From the IMG/VR virus record IMGVR_UViG_2529293043_000022: a stretch of 5,170 nucleotides of DNA; one strand, 5' to 3'. Both the position numbers and the translations under genes were made by a program. The first letter of the stretch is position 1, and each line of letters opens with the position of its first letter. Under the pieces are notes generated by a model, which was not told where the DNA came from, made no database searches, and worked only from the letters and a program-made list of their open reading frames with translations. Origin of the DNA: a virus. Lineage: Duplodnaviria > Heunggongvirae > Uroviricota > Caudoviricetes. This document shows positions 1 to 5,170 of the stretch, piece by piece.

Positions 1-623
<623 letters not shown>

Positions 624-626
<3 letters not shown>

Positions 627-1868
627 TTCTGCCATTGCGCAAGATGGTTGCGGTTTTTCTTCATCATTTTCTTCTTCTGTTTCCTGCTTAGCAGACAGTT
701 CGCGGTTAACTTCTTCCAGGATATCTTTTTCCGGTGTATGTCGTGCAGCAGTGAGAGTTTCCTTGCTGGGGTTCTCGTGATCAGTCTCCGTTAAGTAGGC
801 GTTGATATACCCCTGAAGGCGTCCCGGGTAGTGATAAAACTCAGGGTGAGCGCTCCGGATAAGTGCAAAAATAGCGGCGCGGGAATAGTCCAGAATACCC
901 GGGGTTGCGCGAAGTGCTGCGGACCATTCTTTGAACGGACTTTCTCTTTTCAGGACGATTTCTTTTGCGCGACGATAAACGCTGCCCGGAATTTCATAAA
1001 TATTAAAATCCATCGGAAGTGTGGCTGCTGCAATCTCCACATCCAGCGTATCGAAGGTGTGTACTAAATTCGGATTGCGATCGGTTTTGTTCCCGCCACC
1101 GGCATTTGCACCGGAAGCCGTACGGGTGATACGCGAAACACGATTTCCTTTCATCCACTCTTTTGTCAGCAGACCCCGATCAGTGTAGTCAGCGTCCAGG
1201 TATGCCTCGAAAAAAGCAGTTATCAGTCCCAGGTCTGAATTACCGGGATTAGGGAAAACTTTGTCAGTGTCGCGTACCAGTTTGTGAAGGTCGCGAATCT
1301 CCAGCGGGTCGAGCAGCTTTGTTTTGTGAGAAATGGCCAAGGCAGTAACAGCCGGCAGTTCTTCCGCCCGTGCTATATGTAATGCCTGAAGTTCTTCCCG
1401 TGCAACGTGCGTTACTGGTTTTTCGCTGCCGTGTTGCGCAAGCCAGCGAATGGGCAGCTCCTGACCAGAAACCGGCAGGAGCATATTCTCCTCAATCTCC
1501 GTCATGTCTTCGCCGTTGACGTTGGTATTGTCAGTACTGGCTGGTTTCTCCTGCACGGAGGGAGAGGGCGCGATAAATACCATTGTAATGCCATCTTCCC
1601 CGCCTTTTTCGTATCGGTTGCAGAATTCGGTATCAAACACGCCTTCAGGTGGAAGGTCATTCACAACGGGTAAATGGACGCGAACGGGTTTTTTAAAGTC
1701 GTCTTCATCATAATCGTTGTCATCCATTGCGGTAATGCAGCGGGAGATGGCAACAGATAATTTTTTTGCTGTAGTCCAGTAAAAACCACCTTTAATTCCC
1801 AGACGTTTTCTGACTTTGTCATTTTTTGCTTCGCAATATAGCGCAAATTCTTCTTTATCAGTGCTCAT
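624..1868 (-). CDS. Hypothetical protein, 414 aa, family not recognised; possibly 3'-truncated by the IS
   Basis: Long uninterrupted ORF with ATG at 1868..1866 preceded by GAGG with a 7-nt spacer (minus-strand sense TAATGAGGTTTATCAATG). Contains a glycine-rich segment SGANAGGGNKTDRN and an acidic C-terminal tail. No Walker A, RT (YxDD), Fic or HTH motif seen by eye. Confidence 0.8.
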
Positions 1869-1960
1869 TGATAAACCTCATTACAGATTTAAGGGTGAAC
1901 AAATCCCTGCCATTGCTGGCATTTTTAATCCGTTGGTATGGTGTTAATATGGCTGGAGGG

Positions 1961-2149
1961 TTATCCAGCCGGTGTTTCGTTATTCAGGTACAGCGATACT
2001 TTTTTTACCGGGAGGCATTCACCAGAAATTTTTTGCTCGTCTCTTGCCTGGAGGCAGGATTCTTTACTGGCATAAATTCCGGTAATCACATTCTGTGATT
2101 CACCCGTTATAAGAAAAACCGTCATCATCAGTGCAAATGCTGAAGTCAT
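1961..2149 (-). CDS. Small hypothetical protein, 62 aa, hydrophobic N-terminus and two Cys
   Basis: ATG at 2149..2147 preceded by GGAG with a 7-nt spacer; its ATG overlaps the stop of the upstream ORF as ATGA, indicating translational coupling. The N-terminus MTSAFALMMTVFLITG is hydrophobic, suggesting a membrane or secreted small protein. Confidence 0.5.
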   Translation of the reverse strand: MTSAFALMMTVFLITGESQNVITGIYASKESCLQARDEQKISGECLPVKKVSLYLNNETPAG

Positions 2150-2334
2150 TGACGTTCTCCGAAAATACCAAGTTCAAGAAGAGCAATTCGGGAAAGTATG
2201 GAATTATCATTGAGCAGATAAGGCTCATATTTCCTCATGTTAATGGCATCTTCAGTAAACTCCCGGTTACTGAGCAGAACACCAATATCAAAACAACCTT
2301 CAGACGTATTAACGTTTGGTAATAACGTTTCCAT
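2146..2334 (-). CDS. Small hypothetical protein, 62 aa (alternative GTG start at 2439 would give 97 aa)
   Basis: ATG at 2334..2332 preceded by GAGG with an 8-nt spacer (minus-strand sense GAGGACGCGATAATG). Its stop TGA at 2148..2146 overlaps the ATG of the next ORF. The GTG at 2439 used by the ORF track has no Shine-Dalgarno sequence. Confidence 0.45.
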   Translation of the reverse strand: METLLPNVNTSEGCFDIGVLLSNREFTEDAINMRKYEPYLLNDNSILSRIALLELGIFGERQ

Positions 2335-2349
2335 TATCGCGTCCTCAAC

Positions 2350-2370
2350 AATGAATTTTGTGATGCAGTG
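2350..2370. repeat. Left copy of a 21-bp imperfect inverted repeat (19/21 match to the reverse complement of 2481..2501)
   Basis: Plus strand aatgaattttgtgatgcagtg; the reverse complement of 2481..2501 is agtgaattttgtgatgcggtg. Lies 4 nt upstream of the Shine-Dalgarno of the 2334 ORF. Confidence 0.7.
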
Positions 2371-2389
2371 CCTGGTGCCTCCAGGTGAC

Positions 2390-2410
2390 GTTAACCAGTT
2401 AACAATTAAC
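2390..2410. repeat. Three tandem (G)TTAAC motifs at 8-bp period; possible protein-binding site
   Basis: GTTAACcaGTTAACaaTTAAC read directly from the sequence; lies inside the segment bounded by the inverted repeat and next to a CCTGG-tgcct-CCAGG hairpin at 2371..2385. Confidence 0.4.
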
Positions 2411-2480
2411 GCCGGATACAGAGAATCCACCCATAACACTGTTTTTGGTTTTAACTGTTCCGCGTGCGCTTAGCCGCATT

Positions 2481-2501
2481 CACCGCATCACAAAATTCAC
2501 T
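2481..2501. repeat. Right copy of the 21-bp inverted repeat
   Basis: Plus strand caccgcatcacaaaattcact. The pair encloses 110 bp (2371..2480). Confidence 0.7.
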
Positions 2502-2838
2502 TTAAAAAGGGCGGCAGAGCAGCCACGGAGTAAAACTGATACCGCCAAACGTCACCAGAAAATTGATAACAGAGGGCGTTGCAGCGGGGTTGTCACTTAA
2601 GCGTATGGTCAACCTGACAACCCGGTGTCCTCAATGGGGAAGGAATAACCCCGCCATACTTACCGCCGCGCCATTTCGCGGAGTGCCACAACCGGAAGCG
2701 CACGTTCGAAGAAATCTAACGACAAGCCTTCTAAGGGAAAGAGCTTCGCCGTACGCTTTCGCGTTATGCACTGACTTTTCAGGGAAATATCCTTTCAGTA
2801 AACTGTCAGTACCGGATTCTTATCCGTGTCCGGCGCAC

Positions 2839-2872
2839 GACCACACGTGACAGCGTGTTGGTCTCCATTTTT
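2839..2872 (+). terminator. Candidate weak intrinsic terminator or attenuator hairpin on the plus strand
   Basis: Stem gaccacacg / cgtgt(t)ggtc (9 bp with one bulge) and loop tgacag, followed by tccaTTTTT. The T-run is offset by 4 nt from the stem, so this is a weak call. Confidence 0.25.
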
Positions 2873-2898
2873 AACCCAGAACCTCAATGGAGGATAAA

Positions 2899-3108
2899 AT
2901 GCCAAACAAAAAAAGAAATCCGCTTATTGAAAAACAGATTGAATGCCTGGTAAATCAACTCAGGCAATCAGGGTTATTAAAAACTCATTCAGAGTTGAGG
3001 CTCACAGAATCAGCATTCGACGATAAATTAAATAATGTCCTTTATAATGGCATTATTGATTTTAATCGTTCTGTTGGTCGCCGCGGCCCTGCTGGTGTTT
3101 CCTTATAA
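2899..3108 (+). CDS. Small hypothetical protein, 69 aa as read; the C-terminal part looks off-frame (see the 3035..3145 feature)
   Basis: Strong RBS: GGAGG at 2889..2893, a 5-nt spacer, ATG at 2899. The ORF-track start at 2887 lacks a Shine-Dalgarno sequence. The last ~20 residues (GIIDFNRSVGRRGPAGVSL) look like a hydrophobic helix read out of frame. Confidence 0.5.
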   Translation: MPNKKRNPLIEKQIECLVNQLRQSGLLKTHSELRLTESAFDDKLNNVLYNGIIDFNRSVGRRGPAGVSL

Positions 3109-3145
3109 TTACCAGTCAATCCAGAGTGGACCGTGTTCAGCGTAA
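3035..3145 (+). CDS. Alternate-frame small hydrophobic ORF, 36 aa (32 aa from ATG 3047): MSFIMALLILIVLLVAAALLVFPYNYQSIQSGPCSA; either an independent membrane peptide or the displaced C-terminus of the 2899 gene
   Basis: In the +1 frame relative to the 2899 ORF the codons spell one clean transmembrane-like helix. No Shine-Dalgarno precedes ATG 3035 or 3047. It overlaps the 3' end of the convergent 216-aa gene by 37 bp. Confidence 0.3.
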   Translation: MSFIMALLILIVLLVAAALLVFPYNYQSIQSGPCSA

Positions 3146-3759
3146 ATATAACTGTACACATCCAGATTATATTTGTGGTCTGTTAAGAACAGGCCGCAAA
3201 TACATGCCGAAGCTTCCAGTGCAGCGGCTCTGTTACTGAATAACCATGTAGCAACATTCCAGCGTTTTTCTGCATCCCAGTCTTTCTCAAGGCCTGATAC
3301 CATGAAGAAACCGTTAGTGTTGCCATCAAATAATTCTGTTTCCAAATTTTTAAGCAATGCCTGATGGACTCTTGCCAGGTATTCCGCCGGAATTTCGCCA
3401 CGAATTCTGATGAGATTGTCATAAACAAACATGTTCCCCGCATATGGCGATTTTTCTTTCTTGTTTTTTAAACCAGCATCATGAGCAAACTGATCAATTT
3501 CTTCTTCCGTTGGTTTCGTATTGATGTTTTGCGCTGTCGTTTCTGCAATTTTATTTGCCACACTCTCTGAGTCGTGTTTATTTATAGACGCACAGAAATA
3601 CAATCCGGTAAACGCATCGCGCACATTACGAGCCATATTATCAGTGTCTTTTTTCGTTACCGATTCCAATTCAAGTTCGTTCAGACGATGACGAAGTGTG
3701 TGTGCTGCAATCTCCTGGATTGAAGGAGGTAAATCTTTAAATTCCATCGTCAACCTCAT
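3109..3759 (-). CDS. Hypothetical protein, 216 aa (212 aa if it starts at ATG 3747), family not recognised
   Basis: ATG at 3759..3757 overlaps the TGA of the upstream small ORF (minus-strand sense TGATG), indicating translational coupling. An alternative ATG at 3747..3745 is preceded by GAGG with a 6-nt spacer. Soluble-looking, with no motif recognised by eye. Confidence 0.75.
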   Translation of the reverse strand: MRLTMEFKDLPPSIQEIAAHTLRHRLNELELESVTKKDTDNMARNVRDAFTGLYFCASINKHDSESVANKIAETTAQNINTKPTEEEIDQFAHDAGLKNKKEKSPYAGNMFVYDNLIRIRGEIPAEYLARVHQALLKNLETELFDGNTNGFFMVSGLEKDWDAEKRWNVATWLFSNRAAALEASACICGLFLTDHKYNLDVYSYIYAEHGPLWIDW

Positions 3760-3992
3760 CAGTCAGTGTTTCTGGCTAACCAGCGACGCGCGCCAGCTTC
3801 AGTTTTAAACGTTTTGCTTTTGGTATACGTCATCGCGGTGAACGTACCGTCCTGGTTGGGGAACACGCCACATACCAGAGATTCGTTGTTGCCAAGATTG
3901 AGCGTATCCATGTTGACCTCATTTCCCCTTAACGCCGGGGTAGCGGAACAAAAACCTGCTGCATAGTTATTAAAGTTGAACCCTGCCGTCAT
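3759..3992 (-). CDS. Small protein, 77 aa from ATG 3992 or more likely 50 aa from ATG 3911; it has the size and position of the small ORFs found next to cI-like repressors in lambdoid prophages
   Basis: The internal ATG at 3911..3909 has the better RBS (minus-strand sense GAGGTCAACATG); ATG 3992 has GAGG with a 9-nt spacer. From memory only, the 50-aa form resembles Rac-prophage-type small proteins (YdaF/YdaG-like); this is unverified. Confidence 0.6.
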   Translation of the reverse strand: MTAGFNFNNYAAGFCSATPALRGNEVNMDTLNLGNNESLVCGVFPNQDGTFTAMTYTKSKTFKTEAGARRWLARNTD

Positions 3993-4090
3993 GTTCTTAC
4001 GCCTCGGGCTGGCTACTTAACCCCTGACCACTGCCTGGTAACTCGAAGTATTGCCCTGCATTCTGTGGGGCGGGGTGAGGGAATGAATGA

Positions 4091-4139
4091 AGTTTAGAAA
4101 AACGAACATTTAAGGTCAATGTTTTTTTATCAAAACATT
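4091..4139 (-). promoter_or_regulatory. Candidate sigma70 promoter for the 50/77-aa plus 216-aa operon, with an operator-like palindrome
   Basis: Minus-strand sense -35 TTGACC (4119..4114), 17-bp spacer, -10 TAAACT (4096..4091). The palindrome AATGTTTT-tttatc-AAAACATT (4118..4139) overlaps the -35 and shares the core GTTTT-N6-AAAAC with the site at 4843..4858 in the cI/cro intergenic region. Confidence 0.4.
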
Positions 4140-4203
4140 TTAAGCAGGCAGCTGTTACGCCATCACTACGATGGCATACAGTTAATCAAATAGATGAGGT
4201 TGG

Positions 4204-4842
4204 TTAAATATCTTGTTGAATTTTAAAGCATACTCCCAATATGCAAGATAGATCATCCAGCATAATTGAAGGGTAGCGAGGATTCGTGGGGACTAAAAGA
4301 ATATCCGGCCCTTCTATCTCCAGTTTGCGAATGACAGGCGTTGTGGTCCCTTTGGGTAAGGCAAGGACAATATTTCCTGGTTGTACGATTCGATCGGGAT
4401 CAACAAAAACTGTTGAACCATTTGGGATGGAAACTCCACCACCAGATGTCGACATACTGTCACTCTCTAGAACAACAGCAAAGGTATTGGCCGGGATTTC
4501 TCCGACAAGCTGCACACAAGAGGTTATTGAGGAATTTTTCATATAATCACTCCAGCTTGCTGCCTGCTGAAGTGATAGTAGCGGAACCGTTTTTATCGGC
4601 GGTAAAGATAGATCAAGCGAATCACCTGTATTTAACTCTCCTCCATTAAGAAGCCAATTTTCGTTTACTTTCAATATCTTTGCCAGTGAACTTATGTAAC
4701 GCGAGGACGGCGCTCCTCCACCGTTCATCCATTGACTTACGGAGCCTTTTGATGCGCCAGTGGCATTGACAAGGTCTTTGCCTTTCAAGTTTAGCGCATG
4801 CATACGTTGGGTTATGCGTTCAGATATTGTTTGCTTGTTCAT
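4204..4842 (-). CDS. cI: Phage CI-like repressor, 212 aa (N-terminal HTH_XRE plus C-terminal S24 LexA-type autopeptidase domain)
   Basis: The HTH region (...LVNATGASKGSVSQWMNGG...) and the S24 Ser/Lys dyad (Ser129 in ESDSM, Lys173 in VIRKL, 44 aa apart) match lambda CI and P22 C2 architecture. It is divergent from a Cro-like gene. No Shine-Dalgarno upstream; a -10-like TAAAAT sits 6 nt upstream of the ATG, so the transcript may be leaderless as with lambda PRM. Confidence 0.9.
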   Translation of the reverse strand: MNKQTISERITQRMHALNLKGKDLVNATGASKGSVSQWMNGGGAPSSRYISSLAKILKVNENWLLNGGELNTGDSLDLSLPPIKTVPLLSLQQAASWSDYMKNSSITSCVQLVGEIPANTFAVVLESDSMSTSGGGVSIPNGSTVFVDPDRIVQPGNIVLALPKGTTTPVIRKLEIEGPDILLVPTNPRYPSIMLDDLSCILGVCFKIQQDI

Positions 4843-4933
4843 GTTTTGATTTTAAAACACAGATGGTTTTGTTTCTTGACTTTCTTTGGTTTTGATTATT
4901 AAACTTTTGGCGTTCAGTTTTATGGAGCGACTC
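4843..4933. promoter_or_regulatory. Immunity-switch intergenic region: divergent promoters (PRM-like and pR-like) with two to three operator-like repeats
   Basis: Operator-like sites GTTTTGATTTTAAAAC (4843..4858) and GTTTTGATTATTAAAC (4889..4904), with a weaker GTTTTGTTTCTTGAC (4866..4880), at about 22-23 bp spacing. Plus strand: -35 TTGACT (4876..4881) with a poor -10 (TATTAA/ATTAAA, 4897..4903) and GGAG (4924..4927) before ATG 4934. Minus strand: -10 TAAAAT (reverse complement of 4849..4854) with a poor -35. Confidence 0.6.
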
Positions 4934-5170
4934 ATGAAAAAATCAGAAGTATTAGGCTATTTTGGCGGAGTTGTTAAAACAGCCGCCGCTCTAGGAACGT
5001 CAAAAACCACAGTCAGCATGTGGGGGGAAGACGTTCCGTGGAAATGGGCGTTGCTAATTCAGGCAGTCACTGCCGGGGCGCTCAAATATGAGTTACACAT
5101 ACCGACGGTTGTCATTCCCGATTCTGATCATAATCCGCCTTCTAACCAAGGGGGGATTCATGAAAAATCA
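4934..5170 (+). CDS. cro: Cro-like small regulator (P22 Cro family), 3'-partial or unusually long; runs to the window edge without a stop
   Basis: GGAG with a 6-nt spacer before ATG 4934. The N-terminal ~53 aa (MKKSEVLGYFGG...SMWGEDVP...AVTAGALKYE) resemble P22 Cro from memory (...IVTAGALKYQ...). At least 79 codons are open. A possible overlapping start for the next gene is GGGGGG-N4-ATG at 5160. Confidence 0.8.
   Translation, partial: MKKSEVLGYFGGVVKTAAALGTSKTTVSMWGEDVPWKWALLIQAVTAGALKYELHIPTVVIPDSDHNPPSNQGGIHEKS

Follow-up and report, generated by a model that had tools for sequence, protein, structure and literature searches.

In phage lambda, operators of one sequence family lie on either side of the repressor gene, with the left set overlapping the leftward early promoter and the right set lying in the cI-cro intergenic region, and operators, cI and cro make up one immunity module of which the repressor carries an HTH and an S24 domain. 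CI bound at lambda OR2, centred at about -42, activates PRM, and looping between OL and OR serves PRM autoregulation. Phage P22 displays the same repressor-operators-cro layout, with operators of a different sequence family. A third described system is the dicA-dicC/dicBp region of Qin in E. coli K-12, for which repression of dicBp by DicA has been shown experimentally (PMC10448788, PMC3441716). The K-12 dicBF transcript starts upstream of ydfA, and both DicB and DicF are toxic when overexpressed (PMC10448788).

Here we explore a window, by which we mean the whole analysed stretch of 5,170 nucleotides. It comes from a lambda-like prophage of E. coli O157:H7, Sakai Sp11, and comprises the early-left and immunity regions of this prophage. 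Positions 624-5170 show 100% identity over the aligned stretch to many O157:H7 chromosomes, EDL933 included, and the Sakai counterpart of the window is prophage Sp11, genes ECs_2207 to ECs_2216. Judging from sequence and from analogy with the systems above, we think it quite likely that a palindrome at 4118-4139 acts as the principal left operator (oL) in a lambdoid immunity region of the Sakai Sp11 type, and that it serves to repress the leftward early promoter pL. The gene content of the window is as follows.

66-584, plus strand: end of an IS629/IS1203 transposase, adjoining the truncated recE
624-1868, minus strand: recE (exonuclease VIII) fragment in the distal left operon, truncated beside the IS629/IS1203 end
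1961-2149, minus strand: ydfD-like gene (DUF1482; Pfam)
2146-2334, minus strand: dicB, cell-division inhibitor gene (Pfam DicB, 3e-36; RefSeq annotation)
2509-2560, minus strand: DicF small RNA (Rfam RF00039, 75 bits, E = 8e-16)
Between DicF and the 212-216-aa gene, plus strand: ORF of 73 aa
3109-3759, minus strand: second gene of the left operon, 212-216 aa, phrog_2151
3759-3911, minus strand: ydfA homologue (DUF1391, 50 aa), first gene of the left operon (Pfam DUF1391, 1e-29; RefSeq annotation)
3912-4077, minus strand: 5' leader of the left operon, 166 nt, common to prophages of other immunity types
Between ydfA and cI: non-coding stretch of 292 bp
4204-4842, minus strand: cI-type repressor, 212 aa, HTH at the N-terminus and S24 (LexA-like) peptidase domain at the C-terminus
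Between cI and cro: intergenic region of 91 bp
4934-5170, plus strand: cro, P22_Cro family (Pfam P22_Cro, 1e-15), running past the end of the window

The left operon reads leftward as ydfA-(212 aa)-dicF-dicB-ydfD-recE and is a dicBF-type early-left operon. An earlier, sequence-only reading had described an operon of a 50-aa and a 216-aa gene; the operon exists, but these genes are only the start of a longer one, and the second ORF, although present, probably encodes 212 rather than 216 residues. Neither this ORF nor the 73-aa ORF has a match in Pfam or PADLOC. The conserved leader was searched for a structured, put- or nut-like RNA (3905-4084), which gave no significant structure (fold z-score +0.96), and an Rfam scan of the same stretch gave nothing below E = 0.99. 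O157:H7 carries four prophage copies of dicF (PMC10448788), one of which sits in this window. Qin has the same type of left operon, with ydfA ... dicF, dicB and ydfD, as well as a P22_Cro-type protein (DicC), whereas its leader and second gene differ. In lambda the first gene of the left operon is N and in P22 it is gene 24, the N analogue; here it is ydfA, and the rex genes that lambda has between cI and oL are lacking.

The repressor contains Peptidase_S24 (8e-13) and HTH_3 (2e-4) domains according to Pfam and matches the structures of lambda cI, 434 and P22 C2, the lambda cI match being distant (E = 5e-10). Its identity to P22 C2 and phage 21 cI amounts to about 28-30%; C2 is among the closest characterised repressors (about 28% over the full length), and this low identity implies a different DNA specificity. 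Cro, ECs_2208 in Sakai, is likewise of the P22 type and matches the P22 Cro structure 1rzs at 3e-8. A search of genome contigs with the repressor for distant relatives yielded only three irrelevant S24 fragments (Mycobacterium, Alicyclobacillus). DicA, in contrast, has 135 aa, lacks S24 and is relieved by an antirepressor, whereas the present repressor has 212 aa and S24. Hence the Sp11 system is not DicA-type, though it appears to act alike at the promoter.

The sequence-only reading had pointed out two copies of a GTTTT-N6-AAAAC core. Both are found, GTTTTtttatcAAAAC at 4121-4136 within the 22-bp palindrome AATGTTTT-TTTATC-AAAACATT (4118-4139; 8-bp arms), and GTTTTgattttAAAAC at 4843-4858, which, as had been claimed, directly adjoins the cI ATG (4842-4840, minus strand). 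The two matches compare with 0.03 expected in the window, and none of 200 dinucleotide shuffles contained two. Both copies extend to a perfect 18-bp dyad, TGTTTT-N6-AAAACA, at 4120-4137 and 4842-4859, and when aligned in inverted orientation the two sites match at 16/19 positions. With shuffling restricted to the cI-ydfA intergenic region, which has a GC content of 34%, the probability of obtaining the 16-bp core is 0.002 and that of the 18-bp form 1e-4. No further perfect 18-bp dyad occurs in 20 kb of prophage context, and in vB_EcoS-640R1, a complete phage of 50 kb with the same immunity, the perfect dyad likewise occurs only at these two places. The sole other near-match in the 20 kb is a one-mismatch copy of the 18-bp dyad, TGTATTACAGAAAAAACA (1152-1169 of locus L001), about 9 kb from the immunity region and ending at the start codon of the effector gene nleG7, which is probably due to chance.

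Since the intergenic region is AT-rich, its low GC content could be taken to mean that the palindrome is a UP-like element of pL and resembles OR3 incidentally. Indeed, AAAAAAACA, directly upstream of the -35, resembles a proximal UP subsite as known from established work, and in the mEp460-type promoter an AAAAAAC occupies the corresponding position, lying outside the operator there. We nevertheless find this most improbable, given that the 18-bp dyad has a chance of about 1e-4 in this very AT-rich stretch, that the GTTTT arm, which is no A-tract, is equally conserved, and that the site is inherited with cI and not with the left operon (see below).

The control elements on both sides of cI are the following.

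4091-4119, minus strand: predicted leftward early promoter pL, the dicBp equivalent (consensus scan)
4092-4107: possible promoter-proximal operator oL1, inverted repeat I2
4118-4139: putative left operator oL2, 22-bp palindrome with the 18-bp dyad at 4120-4137 and the core at 4121-4136
4152-4181, minus strand: hairpin just past the cI stop (dG -15.9 kcal/mol, z -4.3)
4842-4859: OR3, perfect 18-bp dyad TGTTTTGATTTTAAAACA, which adjoins the cI ATG and overlaps it
4866-4881: OR2-like site GTTTTGTTTCTTGACT, direct repeat D6, overlapping the pR -35, 23 bp from OR3
4876-4905, plus strand: predicted rightward promoter pR, TTGACT, 18-bp spacer, TAAACT (consensus scan)
4889-4904: OR1-like site GTTTTGATTATTAAAC, repeat D4, overlapping the pR -10, 23 bp from OR2

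The layout is that of lambda: a repressor gene between operators of one sequence family, the left set overlapping the leftward early promoter and the right set situated in the cI-cro intergenic region, with operators, cI and cro as one immunity module and a repressor composed of HTH and S24. With P22 it has the repressor-operators-cro order in common, and with Qin the way in which operators related to those of the switch bracket the -35 of the promoter upstream of ydfA. It differs from lambda in the operator itself, which is an 18-bp TGTTTT-N6-AAAACA as opposed to the 17-bp TATCACCGC-type sites, in the composition of oL, which would consist of one strong and one degenerate site 29 bp apart as opposed to three sites, and in that the perfect sites are promoter-distal. 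The operators are also unrelated to those of Qin (Oc = TTGTTAGTCATAACTAACAA).

The palindrome lies downstream of cI (4204-4842) and before ydfA (3759-3911). The consensus scan detected a sole leftward promoter downstream of cI, consisting of -35 TTGACC (4119-4114), a 17-bp spacer and -10 TAAACT (4096-4091), and the palindrome reaches 2 bp into this -35, which bears out the overlap with a candidate promoter noted earlier. Transcription from pL is inferred to start near 4084, which places the centre of the oL2 dyad at about -44.5, with a start uncertainty of about 2 bp; in Qin the centre of the distal operator lies at about -51.5. The only strong pL site is thus found upstream of the -35 and outside the core promoter, which counts against the repressor-operator reading.

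That geometry is what one would look for in a positive-control site, at which repressor bound around -44 activates pL and the ydfA-dicB operon is expressed in the lysogen: the dyad centre is near the roughly -42 of lambda OR2 and PRM, only a few bases off the class II position, the overlap with the -35 is restricted to 2 bp, and no strong site other than this upstream one is present. The sequence-only reading had left activation and PL-like repression as alternatives; repression has gained comparative support, and activation now seems very unlikely. The promoter is not weak, with a -35 that fits consensus at 5/6 positions, an optimal spacer of 17 bp and a -10 identical to that of pR, and the near-consensus -35 together with the spacing argues that pL is not activator-dependent. 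Moreover, the operon drives dicF and dicB, which are toxic when overexpressed, a second operator-like sequence covers the -10, and the homologous Qin promoter is repressed rather than activated by its repressor (PMC10448788).

This second sequence is oL1, the minus strand of which reads GTTCGTTTTTCTAAAC, a degenerate dyad of which the TAAAC half belongs to the pL -10. It is centred at about -15.5 and holds the same position with respect to the -10 as OR1 does at pR. It is possibly a second operator; it matches the core at 7/10 positions only, and such matches are common by chance, while its conservation could stem from the -10 alone. The centres of oL2 and oL1 lie 29 bp apart (30 bp in the diverged locus L090) and not 23 bp as at oR, hence cooperative binding is not assured. 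A third oL site, either in a 23-bp register or upstream of 4139, was found neither by eye nor by mismatch scans.

On the transcribed strand the palindrome also follows the cI stop at a distance of 68-86 nt, and as RNA it folds better than shuffles (dG -5.7 kcal/mol, z -4.9). A role as an RNA hairpin in terminating or stabilising the cI transcript is nonetheless scarcely credible, as its stem is weak (seven A-U pairs and one G-C pair) and not followed by a U-run, the terminator scan did not report it, and a far stronger hairpin, that at 4152-4181 (-15.9 kcal/mol), is nearer to the stop codon. As an intrinsic terminator it was rejected on account of its A-U stem, the lack of a U-run and its absence from the terminator scan. 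The hairpin at 4152-4181 has a conserved stem and a variable loop among relatives. It could be a candidate 3' end or terminator of cI transcripts, or a barrier to read-through into pL, although it lacks a U-tract.

On the right side the operators of pR cover both its -35 and its -10, the latter being TAAACT as in pL, and OR1 has a single mismatch to the 16-bp core. The cI ATG has no Shine-Dalgarno sequence upstream, because OR3 abuts it. Within OR3 there is a -10-like TAAAAT (4854-4849, minus strand), the end of which is 6 nt from the A of the ATG, an arrangement which suggests that the cI mRNA is leaderless, as at lambda PRM. A leaderless start would place the centre of OR2 near -31.5, unlike the activation geometry of lambda.

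Three further immunity types that share the ydfA operon were compared: strain 2011C-4315, Qin of K-12 and phage mEp460_ev081. Each has its own dyad in the repressor-cro region, and two copies of this dyad surround the -35 of the leftward promoter that precedes ydfA. In 2011C-4315 these are TACC-N4-GGTA-type sites, in mEp460_ev081 the word common to both regions is GAGAAAACTCAA and in K-12 it is ATGACTAACA. The K-12 dyad was recovered blind, TTGTTAGTTATGACTAACAA being the reverse complement of the published DicA operator Oc, which is experimentally supported (PMC3441716), and deletion of dicA derepresses dicBp 22-fold (PMC10448788). The recovery of Oc and the dicBp data from K-12 lend support to the comparative method as well as to the functional reading. 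Two matrices relating oR to oL across the four immunity types were less telling. The best ungapped 18-mer identity did not discriminate: the window scored 14/18, which was equalled by 55/300 shuffles. This can be ascribed to the fact that operator spacers are not conserved and that the oR region used lacked base 4842. A matrix of longest shared words was more informative, albeit only modestly diagonal.

Conservation was studied in an alignment of 85 sequences of this immunity type, comprising the window, 79 of 80 loci from viral contigs and five metagenome contigs. These correspond to 46 unique haplotypes and span from cro to 130 bp past the cI stop. None of the columns of OR1 and OR2 is variable, against 1/16 in OR3 and 3/16 in the oL2 core, all of them rare variants. 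Taken together, operator columns vary at 4/64 positions and other non-coding columns at 65/129 (Fisher 1.5e-10), and oL2 compares favourably with the rest of its own intergenic region (3/16 versus 49/87, p = 0.0066), where it should be noted that most of the 46 haplotypes are close relatives, hence these statistics reflect shared ancestry as well as constraint. The most diverged relatives available are the loci L086-L090, with repressors that are 83-89% identical, and the chromosome of UC4316, which is 81% identical in DNA. All keep ATGTTT[T/A]GATAAAAAAACAT, TTGAC, CTAAACTT and all three OR sites, whereas the sequences in between differ and the pL spacer varies. In both sets, the 46 haplotypes and the 81-89% relatives, those that keep oR do not lose oL2.

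Changes within the sites hit the innermost base of a half-site, as in GTTTA (oL2 of L086), GAAAC (OR3 of L086 and L090) and TAAAC (OR1), and the constrained operator core is therefore probably TGTTT-N8-AAACA. In two loci of this immunity type the oL2 spacer counts six A instead of seven, so that the dyad arms are separated by N5 and no longer by N6; one locus has GATAAGAAAAC and two have CTGACC instead of the -35 TTGACC. These variants are either homopolymer errors or the decay of control elements in cryptic copies.

The 856-bp segment from oL through cI to oR (4078-4933) was found in 1042/5426 complete E. coli genomes, all matches covering at least 80% of it. In viral loci with this repressor the left-hand similarity to the window stops at a varying point, at or beyond about 3920, the commonest endpoints being about 3760, after ydfA (41 loci), and about 3920, inside ydfA (six loci). 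The breakpoints of the left arm never fall between cI and the operator. Prophages with other repressors have only 3768-4077 in common, i.e. ydfA and the leader, which defines a sharp mosaic junction at about 4077-4078, some 7 nt downstream of the predicted pL start. Breakpoints and junction together indicate that promoter and operator belong to the immunity module and that the transcribed leader belongs to the left operon. Such co-inheritance of operator, cI, cro and oR is the behaviour expected of oL/pL.

The proposal that one recognition sequence shared by the cI/cro switch and the downstream operon's promoter points to direct control by the immunity system is thus supported, by position, promoter overlap, footprinting, inheritance as a module and the parallels in three immunity types. 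What the sequence-only reading did not contain is that the site would be a standard lambdoid oL/pL. In mechanistic terms, a dimer of the 212-aa cI-like repressor would bind TGTTTT-N6-AAAACA, and the P22-type Cro would bind the same sites after induction. A dimer at oL2, beside the -35 of pL, would probably act jointly with a second dimer on the degenerate -10 site, and the bound dimers would deny RNA polymerase access to pL, so that the ydfA-(212 aa)-dicF-dicB-ydfD-recE operon stays off in the lysogen. At the cI/cro switch the repressor would also occupy the three related sites with their 23-bp spacing. Upon its loss pL and pR would fire together.

Both perfect 18-bp copies are promoter-distal and bracket cI, which is also how a pair of looping sites would be placed. 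Repressor bound at oL2 and OR3, 722 bp apart, could loop out cI for the sake of autoregulation, much as the lambda loop serves PRM, with any effect on pL being secondary. As an additional function such looping is conceivable, but as the main role of the site we grant it little chance, since the adjoining conserved promoter alone explains the site and since a loop would add to the repression of pL rather than replace it. A bolder variant, in which the loop between oL2 and OR3 shuts pL, occludes the apparent leaderless cI promoter in OR3 and thereby sets the level of an Ala-Ala repressor, we hold to be unlikely. If true, it would represent a compact version, with two plus three sites, of the lambda OL-OR octamer loop, and the Ala-Ala bond in the place of the canonical Ala-Gly might lead to unusual induction behaviour. 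Repression of pL from oL2, as a lambdoid left operator, remains the reading we prefer.

The Ala-Ala pair concerns repressor codons 94-95 (4558-4563; LSLQQAASW), which align to the cleavage bond Ala111-Gly112 of lambda cI. The catalytic Ser (SDSM) and Lys (IRKL) are present, and Ala-Ala is kept in every homologue that covers the cleavage site; RecA-dependent cleavage may as a result be altered or absent.

Conceptually this is nothing new, being another instance of the oL-oR arrangement of lambda and Qin. A text search for the operator sequences found no paper in the library searched that prints them, and we deal with a textbook architecture that has an apparently uncharacterised immunity specificity and an apparently undescribed operator sequence. 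The analysis provides the likely operator sequence and promoter layout for an immunity type present in about one fifth of complete E. coli genomes, the O157:H7 reference strains included. In O157:H7 strains the operator should control one of the four dicF/dicB copies, and DicF has been linked to virulence regulation in EHEC. The value lies mainly in annotation, that is in the operator consensus, the promoter positions and the true length of the repressor, and further in the design of reporters and of curing.

Existing annotations of the repressor gene are too short. Both RefSeq/PGAP and the Sakai record (ECs_2209) call only the C-terminal 112 aa, as a 'LexA family protein', which corresponds to 4204-4542 as compared with 4204-4842 for the full gene (10205-10543 in L001). 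The DNA in those records does not differ from that of the window and contains the intact 212-aa ORF, HTH included. A GGAG precedes the internal ATG (4542) by 8 nt while none precedes the true start, and this probably misleads gene callers, although an internally started C-terminal repressor fragment is also conceivable.

Two further observations concern the ends of the window. At the left end, where Sp12 borders on Sp11 in Sakai, that strain has about 855 bp between the IS629 end and the recE fragment (1087-1983 of locus L096), with a dinI-like gene and an integrase remnant, whereas the window has hardly anything between the IS end and recE (585-623), which suggests an IS-associated deletion in the source strain. 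At the right end, where cro and ydaT overlap, the window reads ATGAAAAATCA at the ydaT start (5163-5167), with five A, whereas the same position has four A in 81/81 occurrences among the related loci that were fetched; the run of five is either a ydaT frameshift at codon 2-3 or a homopolymer sequencing error.
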